Part shown: positions 9,619 to 37,428 of the stretch, piece by piece
How positions within the stretch are numbered: the stretch's first letter is position 1
Layout: every line of letters begins with the position of its first letter
Source of the DNA: Clostridia bacterium
GTDB lineage: Bacteria > Bacillota > Clostridia > Christensenellales > UBA3700
Assembly (NCBI GenBank): GCA_029061605.1
Contig: JAIDRT010000012.1
Location: 66,239-130,238 of the forward strand
Direction: 5' to 3'
DNA: 64,000 bases
Notes under the pieces: model-generated
The model's input: only the letters and a program-made list of their open reading frames with translations
What the model was told of the DNA's origin: nothing
Databases searched by the model: none
Made by a program: the position numbers and the translations under genes

Positions 9619-11277
9619 TCACACGTATTGACCGTTGCGAACGTTGAACTTCAAAGTGACAAGTTTGCCGTCCTCTTCAAAGACCGTCTGCATAATATCT
9701 TCCTGCACAAACTGAGCGGAAATGATTTTTATATCCTTTTGTGCAAAAGTCTCTTTTAGTGCGGCTTTTTGTTCTTCGCCATAACTGCTTACGTCGTCAG
9801 ATATAAACAACAGACTGCCAAAAGTAGAGTTGATTTTAGCGACAAGTTTGCGTTGTTCAAAGGTCATATGCATATTGTAATCTCTCAACATAAATACGTC
9901 AGGATCGTTCATCCAGGCTCTGCCGTTGAGATGACGGCGGAAGATGGTATTGCATATTGTATGCGGTGTAGACACGTCGTCTCTTATCTTGTGTTTTTTG
10001 TTTTTCCAAGACAGTTCCACATCAGAGCCGATACGGCAATAATCCACCTTGCCGAACGCAGGCATAAGCGGTACGCCGCAACCAAGAATCAACTTATCTC
10101 CACAGCACTCTCTCAAGAAGTCCATTGCGTCGCACATAATCTCTCCGCGCGTCTTGTTATGCATAGGCAAAACGCAAGCGCCGTACAAAAAGTCAAGTTT
10201 GACAAGGTCGTATCCCCATTCGTTGAGCACCACGTCAAACACGTGTTTGATATACTCTCTTGCGCCTTCGTTGTAAATATCAAGGGAATAGAATCCTCCC
10301 CAGTTGATACCTGTGTTGTATGCCTTACCTCGTTTGTCCTTGATAAACCAATCGGGGTGCTCTTTGAAAAGCCTCGACCTCTTTACCCCTGCGAAGGGCG
10401 CAAGCCAAAGTCCGGCAATCATACCCTTAGAATGTATATTATCTGCGACTGCTTTCATACCGTCGGGGAACTTGTTCTTATCAGTAATCAGCCAATCGCC
10501 TATATTCTCCTGATAGCCGTCATCAATTTGAAAACAGTCGAACTTGGTGTCTTGAGCGGCGATACTCTCCAAATCACGGACGACAACGTCTTGGTTTATA
10601 TGACCGTAATAATTGTACCAAGAAGTATATCCACAACGCTTTTTTGTCTCGCGGGATTTTACGCCCATTTTATCAAAGTATCTGTCAAAAGCCTCATCAT
10701 ACTTTCCGCATATATGCGCAAGTTCCAACAACTTGTTTTCGCCGACATACTCCACGCCTTCCAACTCTTTGGATATAATTATTTGATTTTCGTTGCAATC
10801 AAAAGTCACTACCGTATATCCGTAGCGCTCTGTCAAAGACCCAAATATCTCCACGTCTTCGCCGTGACGAACGTAGCCGTACGACCAACCGTAGAATATA
10901 CCGCTCTTTCTTGGATAATCCCAAAAGAGAATGTCCCCCGCCTTTGGCAAACCTATTCTTTTCAACACAGTCTTTGTGACAAGGAATTCCGTCAGTCTCG
11001 TCAACTCTTTCATCTGACCGCTTGGCGTATACTCCATACTGTCCGTCCAACTCTGATAGCCGTTGACAAATATCCTGTCGTCTTTGCTAAACTTATATGG
11101 GAATTTTAAATCAAACTTCAAAAAAGATACTTTTGCTTTTGCGTTGAGCGCAACTTTCAACACTCCCTCTTCCAAAGTCGTATCTAAAGAAAAATGCTCG
11201 CAATTGTCTGAGTTGCAGACATACTTCTTGCCGTCTACCTTGTATATTAAATCATATTGAATAGCGTTTAAATCCAT
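9619..11277 (-). CDS. alpha-galactosidase-like glycoside hydrolase (GH36-type)
   Basis: 552 aa with FQIDDGYQ, GLWLAPF, VKLDFLY and NDPDV motifs characteristic of clan-D alpha-galactosidases. Confidence 0.7.
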   Translation of the reverse strand: MDLNAIQYDLIYKVDGKKYVCNSDNCEHFSLDTTLEEGVLKVALNAKAKVSFLKFDLKFPYKFSKDDRIFVNGYQSWTDSMEYTPSGQMKELTRLTEFLVTKTVLKRIGLPKAGDILFWDYPRKSGIFYGWSYGYVRHGEDVEIFGSLTERYGYTVVTFDCNENQIIISKELEGVEYVGENKLLELAHICGKYDEAFDRYFDKMGVKSRETKKRCGYTSWYNYYGHINQDVVVRDLESIAAQDTKFDCFQIDDGYQENIGDWLITDKNKFPDGMKAVADNIHSKGMIAGLWLAPFAGVKRSRLFKEHPDWFIKDKRGKAYNTGINWGGFYSLDIYNEGAREYIKHVFDVVLNEWGYDLVKLDFLYGACVLPMHNKTRGEIMCDAMDFLRECCGDKLILGCGVPLMPAFGKVDYCRIGSDVELSWKNKKHKIRDDVSTPHTICNTIFRRHLNGRAWMNDPDVFMLRDYNMHMTFEQRKLVAKINSTFGSLLFISDDVSSYGEEQKAALKETFAQKDIKIISAQFVQEDIMQTVFEEDGKLVTLKFNVRNGQYV

Positions 11278-11298
11278 AATATCCTCCCATATATCCCT

Positions 11299-11331
11299 GT
11301 CATTCTGAGCGCAGCCGAAGAATCTTAATCC
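11299..11331. repeat. hairpin-module repeat copy (family A)
   Basis: gtcaTTCTgagcgcagccgaAGAAtcttaatcc. Same architecture as the copies at 12538, 12599, 46747, 52872, 56727, 58337 and others. Confidence 0.75.
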
Positions 11332-11441
11332 GATTACACCCTCAACTTTATAAGTATAATATACAGCGCGCCTTCAAGTCAATACCGACAAGTGCGGTTT
11401 TGCGACATTTGCCGTTTATTATCAATTTATTAAAAAAAGGT

Positions 11442-11470
11442 TGTATTTTGGGTCGCATTGTGCTAAAATT
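11442..11470 (+). promoter_or_regulatory. predicted fba promoter
   Basis: TTGTAT (11442-11447), 17 nt including an extended -10 TGc, then TAAAAT (11465-11470). A GGAGG RBS precedes the ATG at 11500. Confidence 0.5.
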
Positions 11471-11499
11471 TATTCGATAAAAAAATTTGGAGGTCATTT

Positions 11500-12453
11500 A
11501 TGCCACTCGTAACATCAAAAGAAATGTTTAAGAAAGCGTATGCAGGACACTATGCAATCGGCGCTTTCAACGTAAACAATATGGAAATTATTCAGGGTAT
11601 CGTAGAAGCCGCTACCGAAGAAAACGCTCCGCTTATTCTTCAGGTATCTTCCGGCGCAAGAAAATACGCTAACCCAACTTATCTTCGCAAAATGGTTGAG
11701 GCTGCTGAAGAAGTAAGCCATCTTCCTATCTGTCTCCACCTCGATCACGGCGACACCTTTGAACTTTGCAAGAGTTGTATTGACGGCGGTTTCAATTCCG
11801 TTATGATCGACGGTAGCCACCACTCTTTCAAGGACAATATCGAATTGACAAAGAGAGTTGTTGAGTACGCTCACGATCACGGCGTAACGGTAGAAGGCGA
11901 ACTCGGACGTCTCGCAGGCGTTGAGGACGACGTAAAGGTATCGGCTGAAGACAGTTCTTATACCCGCCCAGAAGAAGTTGAAGAATTCGTAACCAAGACG
12001 GGCGTAGACTCCCTTGCTATCGCAATTGGCACTTCGCACGGCGCATTCAAGTTCAAGCCGGGCACCAAGCCGCAACTTCGTTTTGATATCCTTGAAGAAG
12101 TAAGCAGAAGACTTCCTGAGTTCCCAATAGTTTTGCACGGCGCATCTTCCGTACCTCAAGAGTTCGTCAAGATCGTCAACGAGAACGGCGGCAAACTCAA
12201 CGACGCTATCGGCGTACCTGAAGATATGCTCCGTCAAGCAGCGTCTATGGCAGTATGTAAAATCAATATCGACTCTGACCTCAGAATGGCTTGCACCGCA
12301 GGTATCCGCAAGCACTTCACAGAGCACCCCGATCACTTCGACCCAAGACAATATCTTGGCGACGCAAGAGCAAATATCAAGTATATCGTTAAGCACAAAC
12401 TTGTCAACGTACTTGGTTGCGCAGGCAAGGCTGACGAAATTCTTGGCAAGTAA
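11500..12453 (+). CDS. fba: class II fructose-1,6-bisphosphate aldolase
   Basis: 317 aa: MPLVTSKEMFKKAYAGHYAIGAFNVNNMEIIQGI...LHLDHG...GELG..AG.ED. Classic class II FBA signature. Confidence 0.9.
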   Translation: MPLVTSKEMFKKAYAGHYAIGAFNVNNMEIIQGIVEAATEENAPLILQVSSGARKYANPTYLRKMVEAAEEVSHLPICLHLDHGDTFELCKSCIDGGFNSVMIDGSHHSFKDNIELTKRVVEYAHDHGVTVEGELGRLAGVEDDVKVSAEDSSYTRPEEVEEFVTKTGVDSLAIAIGTSHGAFKFKPGTKPQLRFDILEEVSRRLPEFPIVLHGASSVPQEFVKIVNENGGKLNDAIGVPEDMLRQAASMAVCKINIDSDLRMACTAGIRKHFTEHPDHFDPRQYLGDARANIKYIVKHKLVNVLGCAGKADEILGK

Positions 12454-13068: not shown

Positions 13069-14274
13069 TTATTTTTTATTATTGACGTAATCGTTATAAA
13101 TTTTATATATTTCGCTATGAACTAAGTAAAAATTATTTTCAAGTTGTTTGACCAATGCTTCGACGAGAGGTCTATTCTCCACAATGAGTTCTTTTGCTTT
13201 ATCAAAGTATTTTTGAATTTCTGACTGAACTTTTTTTGCGAGAGTATCATTATAAGCAGGGCTGTTGAGTTCAGTAGAATCAAAATATTCAAAGCCTTGA
13301 CTTGCCAAAATTTTGACGTCGTCTTCTATCAACGTCGACGCCCTCGCCAAATCGGAATAACTCCCGATAGAACTTGTGCCGGTAAAAATCTCTTCGCAAG
13401 CCTTTCCAGCAACGCCTACTATATATCTTCTTTCTTTATCGTGATACGTCTTTGTTACGCAGTCTTTTTCATAAAATACGCCGCCGTAGTCTTCAAACAA
13501 AGCAATAAATGCCGCTTCTCCGCCCAACAGAAGGTCAACCGTAGCGTGTCCGACTTCGTGATATGCCGATACCAAATCAAATTCTTTGGCAAGTTCATCT
13601 TCTTTATACAATAGACCCGCCGTTATTAAATGTCGCATAGCAACGCGCTCGCGCCCTTCGTAAACTGCCAACCGAGAAGCGTCGTTAAAAATTTCTTCTA
13701 CGTCGGAGTAAGTGAGCGTTTGAGCAAAACAACAAAAATCGTTTATATTAAAATCTTTTTCTATCTTCTTCTCGTCAAATATAGGCTTGAATATTTCGCA
13801 AGCCTCTTGGATCTTTGGCGGTTGAAGTTCTATTATCATATTGGAATCAAATTCATCAAAAAAGTATTCTGGGATATCCTTTTTGTCTTCCACGGTTGCA
13901 ATGACGAATACTTCTCCGTTTCGACAACCGTTCATCTCCCTTATAAGTTGTCCGTATATCGCAGAATTTTTATCGCCAATATCGTCAATCAAAACTACAG
14001 AATGAGCGCTTTTTCTTGCGCTTTTGAATATTTTCTTAATCTTTTTTACGCTTATCGTTCTGGTAAAAACGTAAAATATTTCTCTTTCGCAATCAATTGT
14101 CAAAGCCTCTGCCATAAGCGTTTTCCCAACGCCTTCTTCTCCGTATATCAACAACGCTTTTGGCAATTCTACTCCAAACTTAACGTATTTATCAGTATTT
14201 TTCAAAAAATCGCAAATGCTTTTAAGTTTTTCTACTTCTTTTTTATATCCTATTATTTCTTCAATACGCTCCAT
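13069..14274 (-). CDS. cytosolic FtsH-like protein: degenerate AAA+ module plus M41-type HEXXH peptidase domain, no TM segments
   Basis: Walker A GEEGVGKT. Walker B region VVLIDDIGD has no DE pair. The SRH/RPGRFD equivalent reads YFFDEFDSNMII. Peptidase motif YHEVGHA, then GKACEEI and SYSDLARAS, comparable to FtsH. ATG at 14274 is preceded by GAGGT. Confidence 0.7.
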   Translation of the reverse strand: MERIEEIIGYKKEVEKLKSICDFLKNTDKYVKFGVELPKALLIYGEEGVGKTLMAEALTIDCEREIFYVFTRTISVKKIKKIFKSARKSAHSVVLIDDIGDKNSAIYGQLIREMNGCRNGEVFVIATVEDKKDIPEYFFDEFDSNMIIELQPPKIQEACEIFKPIFDEKKIEKDFNINDFCCFAQTLTYSDVEEIFNDASRLAVYEGRERVAMRHLITAGLLYKEDELAKEFDLVSAYHEVGHATVDLLLGGEAAFIALFEDYGGVFYEKDCVTKTYHDKERRYIVGVAGKACEEIFTGTSSIGSYSDLARASTLIEDDVKILASQGFEYFDSTELNSPAYNDTLAKKVQSEIQKYFDKAKELIVENRPLVEALVKQLENNFYLVHSEIYKIYNDYVNNKK

Positions 14275-14487
14275 AATTCTTGACCTCACGCAATATTCCT
14301 ATCAAAACTCAAGTATATCCGCTATGCCTATACATATTTAGTACCTAGCGTTCGGATAGAGACAAAATATACTCCAAATTTTTGATAGTTGACAAACTAC
14401 CTCTTCAAAACTCTATTTATATATTGTAATTAATTATGATATTATCTTAACTGCTCCGTTAAATAACCTTAGGTCGCAATAACAAAA

Positions 14488-17469: not shown

Positions 17470-17604
17470 AATTGATCTCCTTTTTGAGTTGTTTCGATTA
17501 ATAAACTTTTGTCAAAAGCCTTTTATTGGCAATATTTAAAAATATTTTATTTTTTCAACGCTTGACAAATATATATTCTCGACTATACAATATTGAAAAC
17601 GAAT

Positions 17605-17790
17605 AATATTGCAAGGTTGCTTTGGGACATACGTCAAAGAATGTCCCCTGCATTAAAAAGGGAACGGAGTGAAAATCTTCGACAGCCCCCGCTACTGTAA
17701 CGGCTACGAACGTTCGTGAACACTGAATTAAAAATCGGGAAGAGAGCGCTAGGTATGAAGCCGTAAGTCAGGAGACCTGCCTGTAATATA
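17605..17790 (+). promoter_or_regulatory. cobalamin (B12) riboswitch
   Basis: Conserved core aaaagggaacggagtgaaaatc...cagcccccgctactgtaa. The B12 box agtcaggagacctgcc is at 17767-17782. A weak hairpin plus T-run (gccctatttaaagggcattttt, ~17838-17859) follows. Located upstream of the DUF4430 and ECF-S genes. Confidence 0.8.
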
Positions 17791-17995
17791 AAAAGACGGA
17801 TTTCGGTGGGAGATCAAGTCGTGGCATTGCCATTCCCGCCCTATTTAAAGGGCATTTTTCTTTCACGCGATTTTCCGTTGACTCACGATACGATAATAGA
17901 ATAATGAATTTTTGTGAAATCAACTTCTATTCTCTATTCTTTATTATCTATTATCTATTATTTAAATATTGATCTTATAAAAGGAGTATACTCAA

Positions 17996-18460
17996 ATGAA
18001 AAAGTATGCAAAAATTATTACAGCAATTTTAATCGTCTCAATGCTTTCATTAGCGCTCTTTGCCTGCATCAATCCCGACAGTGACAAAGAGGGCAAAATG
18101 ACCCTTGTTCTTCTTGACGGAGACAACGCCCAAGAATACGTCGTAGACCTTTCCAAACTTCCGTCCGGCAACTCTCAAACCGGATTGATAGCAGTCCTCG
18201 ATTATCTTCAAAAAGAAGGAAGACTTACCTACTCTGTTGACGGCACTCTTTTGACCCAGGTAGGCGATCTAAAAAACAACGCCGCCGAAAATACGTGGAT
18301 ATGGCTCTACACAGACGTAGAAGCGGATATAAACGTAACTGAATGGGCAGTGCAAACTACCTACAAAGGTAAGACTTACACCGACAGCGGCGTAGGCGCA
18401 AGCCAAATGAGTATCAAAAACGGTTGCACTATAATCATCACATATATGATCTACAACTGA
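17996..18460 (+). CDS. DUF4430-like lipoprotein (putative extracellular cobalamin-binding protein)
   Basis: Lipobox LSLALFAC. 154 aa. AAAGGAG RBS. B12-riboswitch controlled. The DUF4430 assignment is from the sequence pattern and context only. Confidence 0.6.
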   Translation: MKKYAKIITAILIVSMLSLALFACINPDSDKEGKMTLVLLDGDNAQEYVVDLSKLPSGNSQTGLIAVLDYLQKEGRLTYSVDGTLLTQVGDLKNNAAENTWIWLYTDVEADINVTEWAVQTTYKGKTYTDSGVGASQMSIKNGCTIIITYMIYN

Positions 18461-18461
18461 T

Positions 18462-19019
18462 ATGAAGACGTCCTCTCACCGTGACAGAGCGCTCAAACTT
18501 GCGCTTATAGCAATTATGGCAGCCACGTTAGAGGGCGGCAAATTGGCATTGTCATTTATCCCCAACGTAGAGGTAGTTACACTTCTTTGCGCCATATACG
18601 GATACGTATTCGGATTTTACGGAATCATAGCGACGTATATTTTCGTCGGTATTGAAACTTTGATCTGGGGCGCAAATACTTGGGTCGTTACCTATCTCAT
18701 ACATTGGGGGTGCGTGTCATTCGTCTTTATGCTACTTGGCAAATTCAAGATACGTAGCCGACTTATCGCCACTGCGACCGCAGTAATTCTGACGGTTGCG
18801 TTTGGCGTGCTTAGTTCCCTTGTCGACACCGGACTGCTCACGGGATTTTTTGACAACTTCTGGAAGAGATTTGCCATAATATACACGCGGGGCGTCGCCT
18901 TTTACGTTGCGCAGATCGTATGCAACTTACTGCTCTTTCTCATTGTATTCAAACCCCTCGTCAATCGCATTGAAATGCTACTGCCTGAGAGATTCAAAAG
19001 CGTGAGTATACGCAAATAG
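18462..19019 (+). CDS. ECF transporter S component (CbrT-like by context)
   Basis: 185 aa with ~6 TM segments. The start is 1 nt after the upstream stop. It lies downstream of the B12 riboswitch. Confidence 0.6.
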   Translation: MKTSSHRDRALKLALIAIMAATLEGGKLALSFIPNVEVVTLLCAIYGYVFGFYGIIATYIFVGIETLIWGANTWVVTYLIHWGCVSFVFMLLGKFKIRSRLIATATAVILTVAFGVLSSLVDTGLLTGFFDNFWKRFAIIYTRGVAFYVAQIVCNLLLFLIVFKPLVNRIEMLLPERFKSVSIRK

Positions 19020-19024
19020 AACAC

Positions 19025-19681
19025 TCATTTATCAGTAAGGTGACGTTTGATTACTTTAAACTCTTTTTCCGTAAGTCCGTCTACAAAACAAATAGCAGCA
19101 TTGTAATATTTGCTAGCATTGGTTCTTTTTTTACATTGCAAACTACTTTGAAACAAACCGAATCTGGCGCTCTTTTTGCGCTTGGCAAACTTAATTGCTA
19201 TATTCACAAGTTGTTTTACGTTTGCGGTAAGATCTTCATACTTCTGTGGCAATGCTTGGTCTTTTGACGGCTCTTCTATAGACTCTTCTCTATGCTCTTC
19301 TCTGTAACCGTGCAAATACAGGTTGTCCATAATTTGGATATACGATTTGATTGCCTCTTCCTCTTTGCACAAGATATAAGGCTCATCTTCTTTGATATTA
19401 AAAATCCGCTCAGTTTCTGTATAGTCCGTTTTGTGATTGGCGAAATAACTATAGATATCTCTTTCAAAAGAGTCAAATTTTTCGCTACGGACGGTGATTG
19501 CCTGATATACTATTCCTTCTTTGAATTTCAATTTCTTTTTTTCGACAAGCGTTTCTACTCCCTGTCTTGCCTTGAAATAACTCCAACCAAACTCCTGTTG
19601 TATTTGAGGGATGGTGACTTTATTCTTCTTAGTGACATACTGCATCAATACTAATATTTCGTCGTCGTTTATTTTGCTCAT
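19025..19681 (-). CDS. FtsK-gamma-like winged-helix protein (218 aa)
   Basis: N-terminus DDEILVLMQYVTKKNKVTIPQIQQEFGWSYFKARQGVETLVEKKKL follows the FtsK gamma pattern (..A...V......S.S.LQR...IGY.RAARL.D.LE..G.). This is the last gene of the ClpP / T4CP-like cluster. Confidence 0.45.
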   Translation of the reverse strand: MSKINDDEILVLMQYVTKKNKVTIPQIQQEFGWSYFKARQGVETLVEKKKLKFKEGIVYQAITVRSEKFDSFERDIYSYFANHKTDYTETERIFNIKEDEPYILCKEEEAIKSYIQIMDNLYLHGYREEHREESIEEPSKDQALPQKYEDLTANVKQLVNIAIKFAKRKKSARFGLFQSSLQCKKRTNASKYYNAAICFVDGLTEKEFKVIKRHLTDK

Positions 19682-19744
19682 TTTTACTCCTCCTAAGTTG
19701 GATCTGTGGACGTTATGATTTCCGGTTAAAAACCGTTCTACCCA

Positions 19745-21439
19745 CTAAAATCCAAATGGATTGCGCTTTATTGGCTTAGTGACGTATTGATAGGCGTACT
19801 TCTTGTCTGACGGATTGACTTTAACATCATAATCGTCTATATTTGCCTGCGCCAAACTGCTGAATTCTTTGCACTTATAATATCTTTCCAACTTAGATAG
19901 CAACACGTATCCGCAGTTTGCTTCGGTGATAATACACTCGCCTTGGTCAAAATGCGTAAGTCTGCTCTTAGGAATGAGCGGTATTGTTTCCACAGAATAG
20001 TGATTTATCTCTCTGCCGTCGCCGTTGAGAGCGCTTAGCGGAGATATCCTCGTCATATTGCCGCATTCTTTAGAAATCTCCTCAAGGGTTGAGGGGTTGT
20101 TGCTGCCAAAGAAGACGTGCATATTGAGATTATCCCTTATTATCTTTGCGTTTTCGCCGTATACGCTGTCGAGTTGAGCATAGGATTGAATAATGAGTAT
20201 AAACCATATATTCCTGCCCGCGCACGCCGAGATAGTCGTCTCAAAGTCTTTGATTGCTGGGAAGTTGCCAAATTCGTCAAGTATGAAATAGAACGGAGCG
20301 TCAAGTTTTCCGTTTGGCTTCTTCATAGCCTCTTCGATAAGAAATCTATACGCGTCTTGCACAAACATAGATATGATTTTATAATGCACCTTTAGTTCGT
20401 CTCTATAGTTGATAAACAAAGCCACTGGCTTATCGCCGGTAAGTTCGCTCAAGTCAAATGAGTTGCACGACGTGATAAGACGAATTGCGCTTTCTCTGAA
20501 TATTGCAACCTTTGCGTTAAAACTGCTGACTACGCAACGTCTTGTGGTGTGCGCGTTGTCAAGTATTGCAAACTTTGCCAAAGAGTACGCTCTCGACCCT
20601 GAAGGACGCGACGAAAAATATCCTCCGTCATTATAGGCAGAGCCGCTCGTTCCCTCATCCTTGAAAGTATTCATTATAGACAGCATAGAAGAGAAAGAGA
20701 ACGTATCTTCGGTGATTGGATTCTTCTCAAGTTGAGTATCCTCAAGCATAGCCCAAAGAAAGGCTTTCAACAACTCTCGCGCGGTATCTTCCCAATATGG
20801 GTCTTTCTCGCTCAAAGTTGGAGCAATCACGTTGGCTACCGTATCTATATCGTTGCCTACGTCGTCGAGTTCGTACTTAGTAATTGTGTCGATAGCCTCG
20901 TCGAGTTGCTTTTGGTTTTTATATACTTTGCCTCTAAAAGAGTTGTATAATGCGCCGTCTTTTTCCTTCACCACCTTGATTTCGTCGTCAATATTCATAA
21001 TGGCTATGTACTTTCTATAAATAGGCGTGAGCATATTCCAGCACTCGCTCTTGCGATAGTTGCGGAAGTTGAGCAACTTGATTTCATACCCCTGCTTCTT
21101 CAACTCCTCCGCGGTGTACTTATACACCTCGCCTTTAGGGTCGGAGATTATCAGAGAGCGTTTTACCTTCTGTCTTGCAAATGACAGTATAGTAGGTATC
21201 ACGTAAGACGTCGTCTTACCAAGTCTTGTTGCGGCAATTACTCCCACGTGATTTTCATCACTCGAATACATTTGAATAAGTTTGCCGTCTTTATAAAAAC
21301 ACGCTTTGAGTACGCCGTCAATTGCCTTTCCGCCAATCTCGTCAAAAATATGTGTATTCCTTACGTTTGGCTCAAGTTGGTTATATTGCATCAGCGTAGC
21401 GTTGTCGTATCCGCTTAAAAGATTAACGTTTGTTTTCAT
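19745..21439 (-). CDS. soluble VirD4/TraG/TraD-family (type IV coupling protein-like) ATPase
   Basis: 564 aa. Walker A GVIAATRLGKTTSYVIPT. Walker B FYFILDEFGNFP. No N-terminal hydrophobic helices. ATGA overlap with the upstream gene. Confidence 0.75.
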   Translation of the reverse strand: MKTNVNLLSGYDNATLMQYNQLEPNVRNTHIFDEIGGKAIDGVLKACFYKDGKLIQMYSSDENHVGVIAATRLGKTTSYVIPTILSFARQKVKRSLIISDPKGEVYKYTAEELKKQGYEIKLLNFRNYRKSECWNMLTPIYRKYIAIMNIDDEIKVVKEKDGALYNSFRGKVYKNQKQLDEAIDTITKYELDDVGNDIDTVANVIAPTLSEKDPYWEDTARELLKAFLWAMLEDTQLEKNPITEDTFSFSSMLSIMNTFKDEGTSGSAYNDGGYFSSRPSGSRAYSLAKFAILDNAHTTRRCVVSSFNAKVAIFRESAIRLITSCNSFDLSELTGDKPVALFINYRDELKVHYKIISMFVQDAYRFLIEEAMKKPNGKLDAPFYFILDEFGNFPAIKDFETTISACAGRNIWFILIIQSYAQLDSVYGENAKIIRDNLNMHVFFGSNNPSTLEEISKECGNMTRISPLSALNGDGREINHYSVETIPLIPKSRLTHFDQGECIITEANCGYVLLSKLERYYKCKEFSSLAQANIDDYDVKVNPSDKKYAYQYVTKPIKRNPFGF

Positions 21440-23064
21440 TGTATGCTACCCCCAAATCCATATTTGTTGATTGTCTTAAATTCGTCGATTATATTGTCAA
21501 GCATAGCCCCATCGAGAATTAGTTTGCCCGCCTTGATCCTGTTGGCGAGTATTGCCTTGTCAAGAGCCTTTGATATATTGTCCGTCGACAACTTGGCAAT
21601 TGACGTTTTGACGTCTTTGTCTATTGATATCTCCTCAATGCCATAAAGTTGAGCCTTGCGAGCAAGCATATCGTCAATCATCAGTCCTTTCTCCTCTTGA
21701 CTTACGCTTGCCAAACTTACCACGTTGCACAACTTCTTAAGCGCGCTCTCGTTGGCTTTATCGCATACGCATATTGGCAGAATACTGCTCAAATCTATCT
21801 GTACGCTTGGAAGCGTCAGTCTAAAGTCTTTGCGCTTAGAACTTCTCAAGAAGTTGAGCGCCAGATCCATTGCCTCGGGCTCTATCTCGCCTCTAAAGGA
21901 AACAATATATACGTTGGATCTGTCCTCGTCACACTTGCGAACGAATATATTATTGGTAGTTGCGTCGACGTCGTTTTTGCCAAGATCGCCCACTTCTATG
22001 ACCTCAACTTTTGCATTCTTTGCAAGGCTGACGATTGCGCTTACGTAGTATTGCAACAACACTGCGCTGTCTGCGCACAGACACAAAGGCGTATAGTTGG
22101 ACATATGACGCAAGTCAAAGTTTTGCGCTTCTCTCAAAATACGCTCTTGCTCTTGCCTGCGATCAAGTATAAAGCCGTCAAACGCTTTTGCGTTTATCTC
22201 TATACCTTGCTTTGAATTAAGTTTGAGAGGCAAATCGCATATAGGCGAACGGCGCTGTTTGTCCTCCATAGAATATATCGCGAGTTCCTTGTCTTGATAA
22301 GGCAGTATCTCGCTATAAAGTATCCTTGCTTTTGGCGCCGAGTACTCGTCTCTTGGCAGGACTGACGCGTTGAAAGCCTTTTCTATAAGACAGGCGATAT
22401 TATTACGGCTAAAGCCTTTAGCCTCTTGCGGATAACTTGCCTTTAGCGCCCCTATAAGCGAAGAGTTGTATCTCATTTCCAACGCCGTCAAAAGGCTGTC
22501 AAAACAATTCTGTCTGTCTGCGGCGTTGTAATAAAGATACAGCATTGCGCCGTCTACGTCGTTCCACCTTGCCGCTCTCGTCAAATTCTTGAGCCCTGCG
22601 CTTTCGTCTTTATCGACGCATATTCCGTGTATCTGCATTATGCCCAACGCTTTCAGCGCGCTGATACAGCCCTCGCCCGCCCTGTTGACGAGATTGCTTA
22701 TTATCTTTTCTTTGCCTTCCTCATTAGGATCCATCATTCTGCGGTCTATAGCCTGCGAAAGCGCGCTTCCCTTGATTGCGACGACTTGAGATTGAAGTTC
22801 GTCATCGTCGGCAGGCATATGTAAAAATTCTTTCATATACTGCTGAGTTCTGCAATATCTCAAGTAATCTTTTTCGTCTTCTATCTGCTTCACTTCGTCG
22901 CTTTGTACGATATCCCAAAGCGCTTTGGCGCTCTTATCGTCAATCAAGTACGCCTTGGCTAGAGATAAAAACGCTTGCTTACTCTGCTCAAAGGACATTG
23001 CCTTGACGATAGGCGCGGAAAAGAGAAAATATTGATTCAAAAAACGTTCGTGTAAATCTTTCAT
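21436..23064 (-). CDS. Sel1-repeat protein with C-terminal Lon/Clp-like pseudo-AAA+ module
   Basis: Sel1-like segment ALGIMQIHGICVDKDESAGLKNLTRAARWNDVDGAMLYLYY. The C-terminal half resembles a Lon AAA+ base and lid (FRLTLPSVQIDLSSILPICV...SLASVSQEEKGLMIDDMLARKAQLYGIEEISIDKD). The P-loop position reads PLCLCADSAVLLQYY. ATG at 23064 has AAAGGAG 8 nt upstream, inside the clpP 3' end. Confidence 0.5.
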   Translation of the reverse strand: MKDLHERFLNQYFLFSAPIVKAMSFEQSKQAFLSLAKAYLIDDKSAKALWDIVQSDEVKQIEDEKDYLRYCRTQQYMKEFLHMPADDDELQSQVVAIKGSALSQAIDRRMMDPNEEGKEKIISNLVNRAGEGCISALKALGIMQIHGICVDKDESAGLKNLTRAARWNDVDGAMLYLYYNAADRQNCFDSLLTALEMRYNSSLIGALKASYPQEAKGFSRNNIACLIEKAFNASVLPRDEYSAPKARILYSEILPYQDKELAIYSMEDKQRRSPICDLPLKLNSKQGIEINAKAFDGFILDRRQEQERILREAQNFDLRHMSNYTPLCLCADSAVLLQYYVSAIVSLAKNAKVEVIEVGDLGKNDVDATTNNIFVRKCDEDRSNVYIVSFRGEIEPEAMDLALNFLRSSKRKDFRLTLPSVQIDLSSILPICVCDKANESALKKLCNVVSLASVSQEEKGLMIDDMLARKAQLYGIEEISIDKDVKTSIAKLSTDNISKALDKAILANRIKAGKLILDGAMLDNIIDEFKTINKYGFGGSIQ

Positions 23065-23069
23065 AGCCT

Positions 23070-23657
23070 TCACTCCTTTGCATTTATTTGATACTTGCTT
23101 GGAATTACGTAGTCGATAATACCGTATTCCAAGGCTTGCGCCGCGCTAAGCACGTTGTCTCTGTCAGTGTCGCGAGCGATTTCCTCTACCGAACGCCCTG
23201 TAAAACTTGACAGCATTGCGTTGATATTTCCCCTCGTGCGCTCTATATGCTGAGCGGCGAGAATGATATCCGACGCCTGTCCGCTTGCTCCGCCCAAAGG
23301 CTGGTGCAAAAGCACTTCGGCGTTTTGCGTAGCCGCTCTCATACCCTTCGTGCCCGCTCCCAAGATCACCGCCGCCATAGACGCCGCCTGACCTAGCGCA
23401 ACCGTCATTATCTTAGCGTCAATAAAGTGCATTGTATCTATTATAGCCAGTCCGTCGGTTATCACGCCTCCGGGGCTGTTGATTTGCAACGTGATTACTC
23501 TCTCCTCAAGCGGTACGCTTGCTATCTTGAACTGGTGGTCAAGATATTGAAGTTTGTCTATCACGCAAAGCGCCATATTATTATCTATCTCGCCAAATAT
23601 GTTGATGGTCTTGTACTGTAGCGAGTAATCAGGTCCAAAACCGTTTCTAGTTTCCAT
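23070..23657 (-). CDS. clpP: ATP-dependent Clp protease proteolytic subunit
   Basis: INSPGGVITDGLAIIDTM, GQAASMAAVILGAG (Ser), LLHQPLGGASGQASDI (His), IARDTDRDNVLSAAQALEYGIID (Asp). The N-terminus is shorter than in canonical ClpP. Confidence 0.9.
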   Translation of the reverse strand: METRNGFGPDYSLQYKTINIFGEIDNNMALCVIDKLQYLDHQFKIASVPLEERVITLQINSPGGVITDGLAIIDTMHFIDAKIMTVALGQAASMAAVILGAGTKGMRAATQNAEVLLHQPLGGASGQASDIILAAQHIERTRGNINAMLSSFTGRSVEEIARDTDRDNVLSAAQALEYGIIDYVIPSKYQINAKE

Positions 23658-23659
23658 TG

Positions 23660-23977
23660 TTATTTCTTCCTCCTCTTTATGTTTTCTTCTATTAATTCGT
23701 AATATTTGTCAAAAATCTTCAATGCTAGATCCTTATCTTCGACTACTGATAACTTATCGTCGTCCGTGCATTCAAACACGACTGCTTCGTCATCTGCAAT
23801 GCCTTCAATCTTCGTGATAGGATGCAATATGCAAAATAGCCTTCCGTCATTGGGGATGACCGCCACTTGCTCAAATTCATAAGCATTGCCCTCTTCGTCC
23901 TTCAATGTGATACTATCTAAATTGTCTTGATCCAAAAGTTTTTCGATCAAACTTATTTCTTGTTCTTTATTATTCAT
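23660..23977 (-). CDS. DUF1292 family protein
   Basis: 105 aa, acidic. ITLKDEEGNAYEFEQVAVIPNDGRLFCILHPI...DEAVVFE pattern. Stop lies 2 nt before the clpP ATG. Confidence 0.7.
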   Translation of the reverse strand: MNNKEQEISLIEKLLDQDNLDSITLKDEEGNAYEFEQVAVIPNDGRLFCILHPITKIEGIADDEAVVFECTDDDKLSVVEDKDLALKIFDKYYELIEENIKRRKK

Positions 23978-24045
23978 AATTTTTGTCCTCTTTATTTTTT
24001 AATTTTTGTTGCCCGCAGTTATACTGCGGGAGCGGCGAGATAGGA

Positions 24046-24387
24046 TTATCTATCCAAATCTTCGCCATTGCTGTGAGAAGGCATATTGTCTGCAAGACAC
24101 TTACAATGCGCAAAGTAATAAATGTACACTTCTTCGAGTATATTTTCGTCGTTCTCTATTAAAAGAACTTCTTTGCCATCGCGCTTTCCTACGCTGTAGC
24201 ACTCGCCGAAGTCATAATCGTTTTTTTCTCTTATGACGCATCTGATCTTGTCCTTAAGCATCAACGCCACAACTTGAAAGTATTGTCTTACGTTGCCGTA
24301 GCAGTCCGTAAGCGCAAGACTTTCGCAGTTGGATTTGTATGCCAACTTACTCACATCTTTGCCAAATAGTACGATACTGTACTCCAT
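24046..24387 (-). CDS. DUF1292-like protein (divergent paralog)
   Basis: 113 aa. LALTDCYGNVRQYFQVVALMLKDKIRCVI...EVLLIENDENILEEV follows the same pattern. GAGGAGGG RBS. Confidence 0.5.
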   Translation of the reverse strand: MEYSIVLFGKDVSKLAYKSNCESLALTDCYGNVRQYFQVVALMLKDKIRCVIREKNDYDFGECYSVGKRDGKEVLLIENDENILEEVYIYYFAHCKCLADNMPSHSNGEDLDR

Positions 24388-24626
24388 TTTGCCCTCCTCA
24401 TAATAATTTTTATATTTTATAGTAAATGGTCTATATTTTGACTTTTTTGCAGAATTTGCCTTGCAAAAGCGTGCAAAAAGGACGCGTTATTCAATTGTCA
24501 ATTTGATTTTGCCGCCGACTAACGGCACGATTGCGCTCTTCTCCTAAAAAATAAGAGTTGCGAATTTACGTCCCCAAACTTTTATTGGGTACGTCAAACA
24601 AATTTTGCATCAAAAGCAGTTTGGGA

Positions 24627-24737
24627 TTATTTGATAGTACCTAAACTTAAAAGACCGACACCGGCGTCAAAGCCGTTAGGGAATAAGATAAAAACTATTC
24701 TATAAATATAAATTGCCATAATTCGTGTGAACGCCAT
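24627..24737 (-). CDS. possible 36-aa hydrophobic peptide
   Basis: Hand-called: AAGGAG, 7 nt, ATG, then MAFTRIMAIYIYRIVFILFPNGFDAGVGLLSLGTIK and stop. It lies in an otherwise ORF-poor 900-bp region. Confidence 0.3.
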   Translation of the reverse strand: MAFTRIMAIYIYRIVFILFPNGFDAGVGLLSLGTIK

Positions 24738-25292
24738 TGCCTGTCTCCTTAAAGATTTTTTGTTTTTCTTTTGACGTTTTCATTATAAACCACGATACGT
24801 CAAAAGGTCGAGATTATTTTAATGTAACATCTACATAATAAATGTTGATTTCTTGATAAATTTTGTTATACTTAGGCTTTTGCCCAGTCTTTGCCTCGCC
24901 GACAACCTCCAATACTTCTACCTCATTCTTACTCTTCCCAACAAAAAGGCGAAAATTCCCCTTGTGTCTTTGCCAGCGTTTTTTTGCTTGCAGCGGTAGT
25001 GTCTAGTATTGAGTTGTTTCTGTGCGATATTAAGTTTTAACTTGGGTATTCGCAAATACGGCTTGCGAAATACTTTGATTTTGAACGATAAAATTCTCAA
25101 TAGATTTTAACGACTAATCTTGATTATTTTTATCTAAACCTCTTTGAGGTGATATCAATATAACATCTCCAAAAATTATTGTCAACAGTTTTTTTACAAA
25201 TTTTTCCAAAATTTTTTTAGCAAATTTTCTGTTAAAAATCAACGTTAAAAGTAATATTTTATACTAATATTATAATAAAAATAAAGACGTTT

Positions 25293-25607
25293 TTACTCTT
25301 CGTTTCGCATTGATTTAAGCAAGGTGATTAGCGCCTCCTGTTGAATTGAAGTAAGAGAGGCAAATTCGTCAAGCAATATCTTTTGCGTCGGCGTAAGTTG
25401 ACACAGTTCGCCGTCTTCTGCAAAGAACTGCGACATTGTGATTCCGCACGCATTGCAAATCGCCTGCAGCGACGCGACGGACGGCTGGACGTTCTTTCTA
25501 AACCAAGAAGATATCGTCGTCTGCGGTATGTTGGACTCAACGCTCAACTTATATTCCGTCCATCCCTTTTGATTGCGCAGTTGTATAATTTTTGCCAGAA
25601 TATCCAT
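25293..25607 (-). CDS. XRE-family HTH transcriptional regulator
   Basis: MDILAKIIQLRNQKGWTEYKLSVESNIPQTTISSWF. ATG at 25607 with an AGGAAAGGG RBS. Confidence 0.75.
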   Translation of the reverse strand: MDILAKIIQLRNQKGWTEYKLSVESNIPQTTISSWFRKNVQPSVASLQAICNACGITMSQFFAEDGELCQLTPTQKILLDEFASLTSIQQEALITLLKSMRNEE

Positions 25608-25626
25608 ACCCTTTCCTATAATTGTC

Positions 25627-25683
25627 TTTTTCGTATATTTTATACGAAAAAATATTGACAAACAATATTGTGTATCGTATAAT
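25627..25683. promoter_or_regulatory. divergent control region: 25-bp perfect palindrome plus promoter for the TM2 gene
   Basis: tttttcgtata-ttt-tatacgaaaaa (25627-25651). TTGACA (25655-25660), 17 nt, TATAAT (25678-25683). Additional CGTATA/TACGAT half-sites at 25675-25701. Confidence 0.5.
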
Positions 25684-27705: not shown

Positions 27706-29913
27706 CTAATCATTTTTGTCTTCCGACTTATTCTGCTCGCCTTCTTGAGTTTCCTGCGATTGCTCTGCGTCCGTGTCAACAACAGGTTGTTCCTCGGCGT
27801 TGCCGTCAGCAGTATCAATTGCTTCATTCTCTTCGCTCTTATCTTCTTGAGCCGAAGTCTCCTGTTTCTCCTCAAAGACTTGTTCTTCGACGATATTTAT
27901 CTTAGGAGTTTCCGTCTTCTTATACGAATCTTTCTTTGCCTGTCTCTCGTCGATATACGCGATTACCTCGTCTGCCGTCTTGCCGTCAAAGAGCATATTG
28001 ACTTCTTCGGTATATATCGTCTCTTTCTCAAAGAGCACTTTTACCATATTGTCCATTATCGTACGGTTGGCTTGCAAAATCTCAAGCGCTCTTGCATAAC
28101 AACTGTCAAGGATAGACTTGATTTCATTGTCAATGATACCGCCCAAATCGTCGCTATAGGAGTGCGTCGTGCCGTAATCTCTGCCAAGGAATACTTCTTT
28201 GTCCCCGCCAAGATACATATTGCCGATTGCCTTTGACATACCCCACTGCGTGACCATCTTCTTGGCGATATTGCTTGCTCTTTCAATGTCGTTAGACGCT
28301 CCGGTAGATATATCCTTGATGACGATTTCTTCCGCCGCTCTTCCGCCGAGCATCATAGTTACCATATCTATGAGTTTGTTGCGCGTAACGTGCGAGTCGT
28401 CGTTTTCCGGTCTCGTCAACGTATAGCCTGCCGCCATACCTCTCGGGATAATGCTCACTTCTTGCACGTCGTCGCAATTTTCAAGCAACTTGCCAATAAT
28501 CGCGTGACCCGACTCGTGGTACGCCGTAATTCTCTTGTCGCTGTCTGTGACGATTCTCGACTTCTTCTGCGGGCCTGCGATAACTTTGTTGATACCCTCG
28601 AGGATATCTTCCATCACAATGACTTTTCTGTTGGCTCTCGCCGCAAGAATAGCCGCCTCGTTGAGAAGATTTTCAAGGTCTGCGCCGCTGAATCCGCTCG
28701 TCATTCTCGCAAGTATCTTAAAGGATACGTCTTGCGCCAAAGGTTTGTTACGCGAGTGAACTTTGAGGATTTCCTCTCTGCCCTTGACGTCAGGTACGTT
28801 GACGTATATCTGTCTGTCAAATCTGCCCGGACGCAACAACGCAGGGTCAAGAATATCCGCTCTGTTGGTCGCCGCCATAATTATGATACCTTCGTTTTTC
28901 TCAAAGCCGTCCATCTGCACGAGAAGTTGGTTGAGCGTCTGCTCTCTCTCGTCGTGACCGCCGCCAAGACCCGAGCCTCTCTGTCTGCCGACAGCGTCGA
29001 TTTCGTCTATAAATATAATACACGGCATATTCTTCTTTGCCTGATTAAACAAGTCTCTTACTCTCGCCGCGCCGGTACCTACGAACATTTCCACAAAGTC
29101 ACTGCCGCTTATTGAGAAGAAAGGCACGTTGGATTCGCCGGCTACTGCTTTTGCAAACAATGTCTTACCCGTGCCCGGAGGACCTACGAGCAACACGCCC
29201 TTTGGTATTCTTGCGCCAAGTTGCAAGAACTTCTGAGGGTCTTTTAAGAATTCTACGATTTCTTGAAGTTCTTCTTTTTCCTCTTCTGCGCCGGCAACGT
29301 CGGTGAAACGTACTGACACGTTCATATTAAGTCTTGCTTTTGTTTTGCCAAAGTCCATAGCCTGACGGTTTGAACTTGCGCTCTGTCTAAATATAATGAA
29401 TATGACAACGCCGCAAATTATCAACGCAAGCAATGGGAATATAATCGACGAAATATTGACTCCCGAATTGGGATCGTTGAATACGTATTGCGGAACGGTA
29501 ATCTTTGTCTTGTCTTCGTCGTCCTTAACCTCGTTTTCCGCTTTTAATTCATCAAGATACGTCTTGAAATTCGTGCGATAATCAATCGTTGCCACGTAAG
29601 TAGCCCTCTTCGTCGGGTTTTTATAAAACGCCTCGACTTCTTTACTCGTTGCGCTTGACTTCAGCGCATACGCCTTATACGATTCGATATACAGCGCGCC
29701 TATCTTATCCGACTCGATCATTTGCACCAAGCCTTGATTGTCTTCGGTACTGGTCACGTCGCCTTTGCTATACGCAATCTCCGTAGGCTTGACGTCAAAG
29801 AACCTAAAATATAAGAATACAATAATTACTACAACCAAAATCACGAGTATCGCAATCTTGCCGTACATTGCTTTTTTGTTCACCTTTTCCTCCAAGCGAA
29901 TTTTATCCGCCAA
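27706..29913 (-). CDS. ftsH: ATP-dependent zinc metalloprotease FtsH
   Basis: [50 protein letters not shown]-terminal TM helices and an acidic C-terminal tail. The true start may be the GTG at 29883, which is preceded by GGAGG. Confidence 0.95.
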
Positions 29914-34916: not shown

Positions 34917-35957
34917 ATGAATTACATTGGTTCAAAATATTCTTTGATAGATTTTATAAAATCCTCCATCGCAAAAACTTTGGAGACAAATTGTGAAAAG
35001 CGCCTTCCCTCTGAAATGGTGCTGGCGGATTTATTTGCCGGCACAGGCGTGGTAAGCGGCTCTTTCAAAAAAGATGGATATTCTATAATTGCAAACGATA
35101 TTCAATATTACAGTTATGTTGTTACTAAGCATATGATAGAAAACAACGGCAATCTTAATAAAGACAAATGCGATGCTCTTATTGCCGAGTTGAACGATAT
35201 TGAAGGCGTAGAAGGATTTATTTATAAAAATTATTGTTTTGAAGGCACGGAAGGTCAAGAGTTTCGGCGTATGTATTTTTCAGAATACAATGCAAAAAAA
35301 TGTGATGCTATTAGAATTGCAATTGAAGAGAAATTTAATAAAAACGCCATTTCAGAAAATGAATATTTCTTTTTACTTGGATCGCTACTAAATAGTATTG
35401 ATAAATACGCTAACACCGCATCCGTTTATGGAGCATACCTAAAAAATTTAAAAAGGTCTGCGCTTAAAAAAATGACACTTGAGCCTCTTCCTATTATGCA
35501 AGGTCAAGTGAAGTGTAAAGTTTATAATGAGGATATATGCGAACTTATAAAACATGTTTCGGGCGATATTCTATACCTAGATCCTCCTTATAATGCAAGA
35601 CAATACTGTACAAATTACCATATGCTTGAAACAATTGCAAGATATGATAATCCTGTTATTCACGGCAAAACCGGACTAAGAGAATACTCCAAACAAAAAA
35701 GTGTTTTTTGCATTAAAAGCAAGGTGGAAGACGCCTTTGACGAACTAATTAAAAACGCCAAGTTCAAATATATATTCCTAAGTTACAACAATGAAGGCTT
35801 GATGTCTCGTGAAATGATAGAAAGAATTATGAAGAAATACGGCAAATATGAGTTATTCATTCAAACTTATCGACGTTTTAAAGCGGATAGCGCAAGAAAT
35901 ACAAAAGCAAATGCTACTATCGAATATTTGCATTGTTTGGTAAAAAACGATTTCTAA
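34917..35957 (+). CDS. N6-adenine DNA methyltransferase (D12/Dam class)
   Basis: MNYIGSKYSLIDFI, motif I LADLFAGTGVVS, motif IV LYLDPPYNARQY. Confidence 0.8.
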   Translation: MNYIGSKYSLIDFIKSSIAKTLETNCEKRLPSEMVLADLFAGTGVVSGSFKKDGYSIIANDIQYYSYVVTKHMIENNGNLNKDKCDALIAELNDIEGVEGFIYKNYCFEGTEGQEFRRMYFSEYNAKKCDAIRIAIEEKFNKNAISENEYFFLLGSLLNSIDKYANTASVYGAYLKNLKRSALKKMTLEPLPIMQGQVKCKVYNEDICELIKHVSGDILYLDPPYNARQYCTNYHMLETIARYDNPVIHGKTGLREYSKQKSVFCIKSKVEDAFDELIKNAKFKYIFLSYNNEGLMSREMIERIMKKYGKYELFIQTYRRFKADSARNTKANATIEYLHCLVKNDF

Positions 35958-35987
35958 TATTAATACTGCGCGTTCAAATTAAATCAT

Positions 35988-37207: not shown

Positions 37208-37224
37208 TAGTAACTCTCCTTTTA

Positions 37225-37428
37225 TCAAAAATCAAAAAATTCACTAAATTTGACTTCTAGAGCATTTACTATTTTTTCTAATGTTGCAATGGATATATTT
37301 CGTTTGCCAACTTCAAGGCTTGCTATATAAGTCCTATGTACGCCTGAACGAAATGCCAATTCTTCTTGACTAATCCCAAGTTTATTACGCAATTCTTTTA
37401 TTCGTATCCCTACTCTTTCTTCAATCAT
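37225..37428 (-). CDS. R-M controller (C) protein, XRE HTH
   Basis: 67 aa. IKELRNKLGISQEELAFRSGVHRTYIASLEVGKRNISIATLEKIVNAL matches the C-protein pattern (RTYIS.IE.G.RN.S...L.KI..AL). First gene of the nuclease operon. Confidence 0.75.
   Translation of the reverse strand: MIEERVGIRIKELRNKLGISQEELAFRSGVHRTYIASLEVGKRNISIATLEKIVNALEVKFSEFFDF

Follow-up and report, generated by a model that had tools for sequence, protein, structure and literature searches.

To our knowledge, the partners described so far for ClpP are AAA+ unfoldases of the Clp/Hsp100 type. Clp ATPases dock on ClpP with a tripeptide of the form (L/I/V)-G-(F/L) (PMC8745299), the IGF/LGF loops being bound by an apical hydrophobic pocket of ClpP (PMC8745299, PMC7112952, PMC9823225), and the N-terminal loops of ClpP gate the pore and are needed for recognition by ClpX (PMC7112952, PMC9823225). 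Here we describe a clpP gene with other partners, in a cluster of six co-directional genes at positions 19025-24387 (minus strand) of a 64,000-nucleotide (nt) stretch of DNA from a Clostridia bacterium (Christensenellales, UBA3700; GenBank assembly GCA_029061605.1, contig JAIDRT010000012.1, positions 66,239 to 130,238). The whole of this stretch is called the window. The cluster encodes a variant ClpP, a 542-amino-acid (aa) protein named F0, a soluble ATPase of the type IV coupling protein (T4CP) kind, a 218-aa protein with a predicted winged helix-turn-helix (wHTH) of the FtsK-gamma type, and two small proteins of 105 and 113 aa. An earlier note, made from the sequence of this DNA alone, had described six packed genes with coupled junctions; an open reading frame (ORF) check of the window returned all six where the note had placed them, and the junctions could be read directly.

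The folds encoded by the cluster are known ones (ClpP, Lon-type AAA+, T4CP, and FtsK gamma), and each protein lacks at least one of the features that define its canonical family. No system that combines the four was found in open-access papers or on bioRxiv, which agrees with the earlier note, whose author knew of none of this composition. Judged by its sequences, the architecture appears to be categorically new.

Conservation of the cluster and its proteins

Related loci, 38 in number, were collected from three sources: homologues of F0, a scan of one genome per species, and variant ClpPs as independent anchors. In each of the 37 loci long enough to show it, the T4CP gene is the next gene after F0; the variant clpP lies directly upstream of F0 in 35 of the 38, and a gene for a gamma-type wHTH protein follows the T4CP gene in about two-thirds to three-quarters of the loci. 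When ClpP was used as the anchor, all three look-ups (one of them an Erysipelotrichales contig) recovered both the T4CP and an F0 that was 30-33% identical and had a YGF tail. Across the related loci the identity of F0 ranges from 30 to 96%, and L010 is a 96% identical relative of the window. That the arrangement recurs in 38 other loci, some with F0 identities as low as 30%, is far beyond chance, so that conservation as a unit, on which the earlier note had made its proposal depend, is borne out. The hosts are gut Bacillota known from metagenome-assembled genomes: Christensenellales, other Clostridia, Erysipelotrichales, and Anaeroplasmataceae. In a scan of representative genomes with one degenerate peptide pattern, which gives a lower bound, a relative of F0 was found in at least 23 species.

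The proteins of the cluster have diverged at different rates. Between the window and the L001 clade, identity is 57% for ClpP, 51% for the T4CP, 36% for F0, and below 25% for the wHTH protein. From these comparisons the enzymes appear to evolve slowly and F0 and the wHTH protein fast, an asymmetry typical of adaptor or specificity subunits.

The ClpP matches Pfam CLP_protease (PF00574, MEROPS S14) with 185 bits and shares about 50% identity with ClpPs of solved structure; it falls under every NCBIfam ClpP cutoff (e.g. 168 against 308.6 bits). The window protein was aligned with 24 orthologues from related loci and two ClpPs from the PDB. The motifs GQAASM, HQPLGG, and DTDRD are kept in all 25 cluster ClpPs, and with them the Ser-His-Asp triad of the ClpP fold, which the earlier note had recognized in the window protein. 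The N-terminus is about 15 residues shorter than in the PDB ClpPs and the axial gate loop is missing. All cluster ClpPs have I-[IT]-x-Q-INSPGG where the canonical sequence is DIYLYINSPGG. R-[A/R]-A-T stands in place of KRFALPN; an insertion of eight residues precedes the latter strand in about half of them, including that of the window. Thus, neither the N-terminal gate loop nor the Tyr-x-Tyr pocket before INSPGG, both of which belong to housekeeping ClpPs, is present. By comparison with Y60, Y62, F112, and L114 of E. coli ClpP, we take the replaced residues to lie in the docking pocket. Phe63 of ctClpP2, named in PMC9823225, would correspond to the residue just before INSPGG. Gln in place of Tyr at this site, together with the short N-terminus, is found in 116 of the 120 closest ClpPs in a collection of 5.8 billion proteins. 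It appears, therefore, that the cluster ClpPs are a dedicated clade with common derived changes in the pocket and at the N-terminus.

F0 has no family match in Pfam, PHROG, PADLOC, or NCBIfam. It belongs to a new protein family of several hundred clusters at 50% identity (613 representatives at 50% clustering, 261 of them at E <= 1e-30), absent from Pfam, whose members are nearly all 525-550 aa long. An AlphaFold2 model based on an alignment of 31 family members (mean confidence, pLDDT, 90; predicted template-modelling score, pTM, 0.81) has an N-terminal helical region of Sel1-like repeats, a Lon-type AAA+ module, and a disordered C-terminal tail. In a Foldseek search of this model against the PDB, the top 44 matches were all Lon AAA+ modules (E about 1e-7, probability 1.0), and Lon and AAA proteins also led among viral models; the predicted fold of the C-terminal half is thus the AAA+ base and lid of the Lon clade. 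The family profile reaches Lon weakly (E 0.06, residues 397-519) and a Sel1-repeat protein of the PDB more clearly (E 7.6e-5, residues 114-189). Since Pfam Sel1 matches are weak (3 of 31 members, best E 0.029), the Sel1 assignment rests on the profile match to the PDB protein; the Sel1 repeat of the earlier note stands at that level and does not stand as a Pfam match.

The motifs for ATP are missing from this module. F0 has no Walker A sequence GxxGxGK[ST], a three-residue turn (ADS) joining beta1 (327-330) to alpha1 (334-347), and no Walker B, the beta3 strand NVYIVSF being without a following acidic pair. Both losses hold across the family, in which the consensus is PLCLCSDS. Sequence and model together thus indicate that F0 is a dead ATPase (a pseudo-ATPase), and the earlier description of a Lon-type AAA+ protein without a P-loop agrees with the Foldseek result and with the short turn. 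The S16 Ser-Lys protease domain of Lon is also absent: the chain ends about ten residues past the AAA+ lid, with no match to Lon_C.

This stretch of ten residues at the C-terminus is disordered (pLDDT 33-42); within it a G-x-G-G is invariant, with G536, G538, and G539 identical in all 31 sequences. A [YFILMVC]-G-[FY] motif occurs within the last 25 residues of 175 of the 178 full-length F0 representatives, as compared with 2.5% of control windows; the commonest forms are YGFGG, FGFGG, FGYGG, IGFGG, and LGFGG. The earlier note had suggested a search for a ClpP-docking motif of the IGF/LGF kind, and the tail is a candidate for it, since its sequence is consistent with the published (L/I/V)-G-(F/L) tripeptide. 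The sequence IGFGA of E. coli ClpX resembles it as well.

Three loci are without ClpP, namely L012 and L014, which are of one lineage, and L022 (F0 at about 10001-11600 in these loci). They keep F0, the T4CP, and, mostly, the wHTH gene. Their F0 tails are IGFGG or CGFGG instead of the usual aromatic-GFGG, a hint that they may use the housekeeping ClpP.

The ATPase matches the Pfam families T4SS-DNA_transf (PF02534, 187 bits), TraG-D_C (PF12696, 89 bits), and TrwB_AAD_bind (PF10412, 57 bits), and has the nucleotide-binding and all-alpha domains of T4CPs. Walker A, AATR[LQV]GKT, and Walker B, F[IVM]LDEF, are present in 30 of 30 loci. No transmembrane (TM) helix is found: the maximum 19-residue hydropathy is 1.21 for the window protein and at most 1.55 over all loci, as compared with two TM segments above 2.0 in a plasmid T4CP of the CD1115 family. 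The soluble VirD4/TraG-like ATPase with intact Walker motifs of the earlier note is therefore confirmed. The proposal of the note also depended on the 542-aa and 564-aa proteins belonging to no system already characterized; this is borne out for F0, which has no family and no PADLOC model, with the reservation that the ATPase barely passes the NCBIfam model 'VirD4-like, CD1115 family', with 253 bits against a cutoff of 250. At or near the C-terminus of the cluster ATPases, in about 24 of 30 loci, a run of basic residues leads into an aromatic-[D/G]-aromatic motif (FDF, YDF, FDY; PFGF in the window, 19745-19790, minus strand). To judge from this pattern, the C-terminus could dock as a second tail, for instance on the Sel1-like repeats of F0.

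The 218-aa protein has no direct match in Pfam, PHROG, PADLOC, or NCBIfam, and is placed through its orthologues. A module of about 55 residues at the N-terminus is common to the positional orthologues; the N-terminal profile of 17 of them has FtsK gamma (2j5p, E 2.4e-5) as its best PDB match, and Pfam FtsK_gamma (PF09397) is matched by nine of the 17, often by way of additional canonical gamma copies. By this profile the window protein carries a winged helix of the FtsK-gamma type, as the earlier note had proposed for the last gene. C-terminal to the wHTH, the orthologues have poly-acidic linkers and highly variable parts, and one contains a complete FtsK_SpoIIIE ATPase. In some loci (L017 13236-14864, L038 14305-15369) the T4CP is followed by a bona fide FtsK_SpoIIIE ATPase that includes a gamma domain; these loci therefore possess two FtsK/HerA-superfamily motors.

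The earlier note had counted two DUF1292 genes. The 105-aa protein is indeed a member of Pfam DUF1292 (PF06949), with 27.4 bits against a cutoff of 24; the 113-aa protein matches nothing in Pfam, PHROG, PADLOC, or NCBIfam, shows a weak BLASTP similarity to the 105-aa protein alone (E 6e-5, 27% over 41 aa), and is not assigned to the family. Homologues of the 113-aa protein were found only in L004, L010, and L011, which are of the window's own lineage. By tblastn, DUF1292 homologues adjoin the core in about 15 of 32 loci; most lie directly upstream of ClpP, those in L021 and L029 lie downstream, and the match in L004 is weak. A lead from DUF1292 to ReoM was dropped, as DUF1292 is not ReoM and the term does not occur in the main text of the ReoM paper.

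A proposed protease linked to DNA and its alternatives

The proteins of the cluster very probably work together as one system. We favour a mechanism in which they form a dedicated DNA-linked ATP-dependent protease, and give this reading, with its conflict role included, a probability of about 0.4. With genes linked and domains identified as above, the anatomy and conservation of the cluster suggest a chamber, a collar, a motor, and a targeting subunit. The variant ClpP would be the proteolytic chamber. F0, a ring protein derived from a Lon AAA+ module and left without ATP binding or hydrolysis, would serve as a docking collar that fits motor and ClpP together. Its flexible C-terminal tails, of the form Phi-G-F-G-G (Phi, hydrophobic), would enter the remodelled pockets at the apex of this ClpP in the manner of the IGF/LGF loops of ClpX, ClpA, and ClpC. 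The soluble T4CP-type ATPase, as a hexamer, would be the sole active motor and drive the substrate toward ClpP; it may bind F0 through its basic and aromatic C-terminal tail and the Sel1-like repeats. The FtsK-gamma wHTH protein, whose C-terminal part is fast-evolving and often acidic, would target the machine to DNA or to a protein bound or linked to DNA.

We infer such a stack of T4CP hexamer, F0 ring, and ClpP because F0 and the T4CP are obligately linked, the private ClpP is nearly obligate, and a dead ring ATPase accompanies a live one; because the F0 tail carries a ClpX-like motif and the surface and gate of ClpP are remodelled; and because a subunit with a gamma-type wHTH belongs to the set. 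It may be speculated that the smaller residues of the ClpP pocket (Tyr replaced by Thr, Ile, or Gln; Phe by Ala or Arg) pair with the bulkier Tyr or Phe at the first position of the F0 tail. This pairing, and the IGFGG and CGFGG tails of the loci without ClpP, would fit, again speculatively, a private docking that has co-evolved.

As to the role, a conflict function is the most likely one, to judge from the distribution: the machine may degrade proteins that arrive with foreign DNA, such as a conjugative relaxase-DNA complex or phage DNA-bound proteins, or it may carry out self-proteolysis triggered by DNA. A role against foreign DNA is favoured because the distribution is patchy, the specificity subunit is fast-evolving, and neighbours of the conflict type occur. 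Upstream of the cluster, many loci (e.g. L001 1-8900, L002 950-8900, L005 1000-8950, L034 690-9200, L036 500-9000) have long, tightly packed, co-directional gene sets that are mutually unrelated and vary between loci. One such set consists of a DO-GTPase2-like protein and a 1664-aa protein; another of an SF1 helicase that matches PADLOC PDC-S37/Hhe with a kinase, a PP2C, and a transglutaminase-like protein; others of an AAA protein with a trypsin and a RuvB-like AAA protein, or of an Hsp70-like protein. That Hhe-like helicase is the single match of PADLOC among these upstream genes. Still other loci have as neighbours a type IIG restriction-modification (R-M) system, Fic, or YgjP/WLM with Macro-ASCH. 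In at least seven loci, a recurrent protein of about 235 aa is encoded directly upstream of the DUF1292-like gene; a sequence search of the PDB gave no match for it. A bolder version of the proposal, which we regard as improbable at present, is that the cluster is a new class of ATP-dependent protease, in which a RecA-fold motor of the T4CP type (FtsK/HerA superfamily) takes the place of an AAA+ unfoldase and feeds ClpP by way of a dead adaptor ring derived from Lon. It would act as an immune decoy of a coupling protein, whose wHTH captures proteins borne by foreign DNA (relaxase on single-stranded DNA, phage DNA-end proteins) so that ClpP can destroy them.

Several points weigh against the proposed machine. 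The docking of F0 tails on ClpP is argued by analogy. The canonical pocket tyrosines are lost from the variant ClpP, and binding of the canonical IGF type can therefore not be assumed. The three loci without ClpP, which are of two lineages, still keep the tail motif. ClpP paralogues without N-terminal loops form one ring of mixed ClpP1P2 barrels (PMC9823225), so that the partner surface could differ from the one proposed. Concerning the conflict role, none of the six proteins has a match in PADLOC-DB 2.0 at E <= 0.01, and the site in the window's lineage is unusual for a defence system, being stable and near oriC in a housekeeping region. We also know of no T4CP that feeds a protease.

The site near oriC would suit an alternative in which the machine is the same and its role is housekeeping: a DNA-tracking motor of T4CP and gamma wHTH would hand proteins stuck on or crosslinked to the chromosome to ClpP. 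Variants of it are the clearance of DNA-protein crosslinks and roadblocks, or the regulated turnover of a DNA-bound factor, for example in sporulation. The window is a chromosomal origin region, from an uncultured bacterium akin to Christensenella, with dnaA, dnaN, recF, gyrB/A, parB, rsmG, mnmG, mnmE, yidC, and ftsH, and shares a neighbourhood of ftsH, a TM2 gene, and an XRE-family helix-turn-helix (HTH) gene with L004, L010, and L011; synteny in this lineage is kept down to an F0 identity of 45%. The lack of PADLOC matches also speaks for a housekeeping function. In several relatives, genes for a SprT/WLM-like YgjP metalloprotease (L001 14493-16133, L005 14494-16131, L038 7971-8696) recur beside the cluster, accompanied by a Macro-ASCH gene in L001 and L005; their proximity could be coincidence or a link to the processing of ADP-ribose or DNA-protein adducts. 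Metallophos genes lie within a few kb of the cluster in the same three loci. However, the patchy distribution over the species of the representative-genome scan, the highly variable contexts, the very fast evolution of the targeting subunit, and upstream modules that are of the conflict type and different at each locus all speak against a housekeeping role, which is considered unlikely.

A second alternative, to which we give about the same low credence, is that F0, the T4CP, and the wHTH protein are a module for DNA handling (translocation, segregation, or uptake) and that ClpP is a mere accessory, which matures or regulates a component, joins the ordinary ClpX or ClpC, or contributes a ring to a mixed barrel; the tail motif of F0 would then have another purpose. 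It is true that the F0-T4CP pair is the sole invariant part of the cluster, that the three loci mentioned do without ClpP, that a further, complete FtsK/SpoIIIE ATPase with its gamma domain is encoded in some loci, and that ClpP paralogues lacking gate loops act in mixed barrels. An accessory role, however, does not explain well why this ClpP is a dedicated clade with derived changes in the pocket and at the N-terminus, why it led to F0 and the T4CP in each of three independent look-ups, why nearly every F0 tail matches the ClpP-docking consensus, or why the genes are translationally coupled.

Origin of the cluster as the remnant of an integrative conjugative element, with the T4CP-like gene as a relic and the adjacency of ClpP as incidental, is largely refuted by identity, TM content, and context, and is judged very improbable. 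The ATPase does score 3 bits above the CD1115 cutoff, and its nearest annotated relatives are plasmid T4CPs of that family. Identity to these is 27-29% only, and they have TM helices and operons of the pLS20 type for a type IV secretion system (T4SS); the one inspected is 729 aa long, has two N-terminal TM helices, and lies in a pLS20-type conjugation operon. In contrast, any two cluster T4CPs share at least 50% identity and their motifs are invariant, and the trio is conserved across the 38 loci. As the earlier note had stated, the window has no genes of this kind: of its 46 ORFs scanned, none has a domain of a relaxase, T4SS, integrase, or phage structural protein. T4SS, relaxase, integrase, and capsid domains are likewise absent from the annotated related loci, and in none of the loci examined does the cluster lie within a conjugative module. 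A fragment for phage or prophage morphogenesis, with a ClpP-like prohead protease and a packaging ATPase of the FtsK/HerA type, is equally hard to credit and largely refuted, since the 112 bits of ClpP against PHROG head-maturation protease families are far below its 185-187 bits against cellular ClpP, genes for capsid, portal, or terminase are absent, and searches with F0 matched none of 50,697 phage records or 72,556 plasmids (tblastn) and none of the IMG/VR contigs (pattern scan), for which reason F0 as phage or plasmid cargo was rejected too.

Organization of the locus and neighbouring genes

The coordinates of the cluster and of a possible regulator are listed in Table 1. The motifs quoted in the earlier note (GQAASMAAV, HQPLGG, RDTDRD, PLCLCADSAVLLQYY, AATRLGKTT, and FILDEFGNF) were all found.

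Table 1. Features of the ClpP-F0-T4CP cluster; positions are those of the window.
Feature	Position	Strand	Basis or remark
113-aa small protein; cluster gene 1	24046..24387	-	ORF; lineage-specific; distant DUF1292-like paralogue
105-aa DUF1292-family protein	23660..23977	-	Pfam DUF1292; common, not universal accessory gene
Variant ClpP, 195 aa	23070..23657	-	Pfam CLP_protease; Ser/His/Asp contexts kept
F0 as ORF, 545 aa from GTG	21436-23073	-	
F0, 542 aa from ATG 23064	21436..23064	-	Start shared with homologues
YGFGG, F0 residues 535-539, disordered tail; candidate ClpP-docking motif	21448..21462	-	
Soluble T4CP-like ATPase (VirD4/TraG, FtsK/HerA superfamily), 564 aa	19745..21439	-	Pfam, NCBIfam
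218-aa protein; predicted N-terminal FtsK-gamma-type winged helix at about residues 8-60, short divergent C-terminal region	19025..19681	-	
XRE-family HTH protein, co-directional, about 900 nt upstream of the cluster	25293..25661	-	Pfam HTH_3, E 4.6e-10

The ATG of clpP lies 2 nt past the stop of the DUF1292 gene. A Shine-Dalgarno sequence, AAGGAG, is located within the last codons of clpP, 5 nt before the ATG of F0; F0 and the ATPase gene overlap by ATGA, and a gap of 63 nt separates the ATPase gene from that of the 218-aa protein. No convincing minus-strand terminator was found inside the cluster. A stem-loop without a U-tract, CCCGCAG-TATAA-CTGCGGG, is present at about 24015-24033 (minus strand), between the 113-aa and DUF1292 genes. 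Upstream of the cluster, the minus strand has promoter-like sites at 25185-25157 and 24811-24782, and the intergenic region 24388-25292, about 900 nt between the XRE gene and cluster gene 1, yielded no convincing ORF and no convincing Rfam match. A gene of the same family as this XRE gene precedes the cluster in L004, L010, and L011 as well; it is possible, by a weak link, that the XRE-family protein regulates the cluster.

On the other side of the cluster, a cobalamin riboswitch (Rfam RF00174, 95.8 bits) at 17596-17798 (plus strand) precedes a two-gene unit, 17996-19019, whose products are a putative lipoprotein and a membrane protein of 185 aa, both without a Pfam match. The stop of this unit is convergent with that of the 218-aa gene and 5 nt away (19019 versus 19025), so that there is no space for terminators between the two. 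Farther away, at 13069-14289 (minus strand), lies a gene for a second, short FtsH-like protein of 406 aa, with an AAA domain and a weak match to Peptidase_M41; it clusters with the FtsH family and, unlike the full FtsH (27706-29913), apparently has no membrane and extracellular region at its N-terminus. A probable type II R-M system is found about 10 kb from the cluster at 34917-37228, with a D12-class N6-adenine methyltransferase (34917-35957, plus strand), an IceA/NlaIII-like endonuclease (36608-37228, minus strand), and an unannotated 206-aa gene between them (35988-36608, minus strand).

Comparison with known systems

A remodelled ClpP with a pseudo-ATPase that bears a docking motif and a motor of the conjugation type would extend the rule that the partners of ClpP are of the Clp/Hsp100 kind. 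If the proposed machine is real, the docking surfaces of ClpP and its partners can co-evolve into private pairs, and compartmental proteolysis can be linked to machinery that recognizes DNA. The cluster would also be a candidate for a new conflict system in Clostridia of the human and animal gut (Christensenellales and relatives), which are abundant and poorly studied.

The cluster shares with ClpXP, ClpAP, and ClpCP a serine protease of the ClpP fold with an intact triad, and a partner that has an AAA+ fold of the HCLR clade and a flexible hydrophobic-Gly-aromatic motif like (L/I/V)-G-(F/L). It differs from them in that the AAA+ partner has neither P-loop nor Walker B and carries the motif on a C-terminal tail rather than on an internal loop, that ClpP is without N-terminal gate loops and pocket tyrosines, and that the sole live ATPase is a RecA-fold T4CP of the FtsK/HerA superfamily, not an AAA+ protein. 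F0 shares with Lon (LonA, LONP1) the AAA+ fold of base and lid in its C-terminal half; however, it is without the S16 domain and the ATP-binding motifs, has Sel1-like helical repeats in place of the N-terminal domain of Lon, and is 12-15% identical to Lon. Pairs of ClpP1 and ClpP2, as in Chlamydia (ClpP1) and Pseudomonas (ClpP2), likewise include a second ClpP that has no axial loop and an altered pocket and is not expected to bind ClpX, whereas the paralogue of the cluster is operon-linked to its own non-Clp partners.

Among the motors, the ATPase resembles the T4CPs (VirD4/TraG/TrwB; CD1115) in its nucleotide-binding and all-alpha domains, Walker A and B motifs, and TraG-D_C region; unlike them, it has no N-terminal TM anchor and no partner genes for a T4SS or relaxase, and it is obligately paired with F0. 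As in FtsK/SpoIIIE, a motor of the FtsK/HerA superfamily is combined with a winged helix of the gamma type, except that in the cluster the two are on separate polypeptides, the motor is of the T4CP branch, and a membrane domain is lacking. The cluster can also be likened to the HerA-scaffolded defence systems Sir2-HerA and DUF4297-HerA, in which a hexameric ATPase of the FtsK/HerA superfamily is coupled in an operon to a destructive effector and which are patchily distributed; it matches no PADLOC model in sequence and is set apart from these systems by an ATPase of the T4CP branch, ClpP as the effector, and an extra adaptor of the pseudo-AAA+ type.

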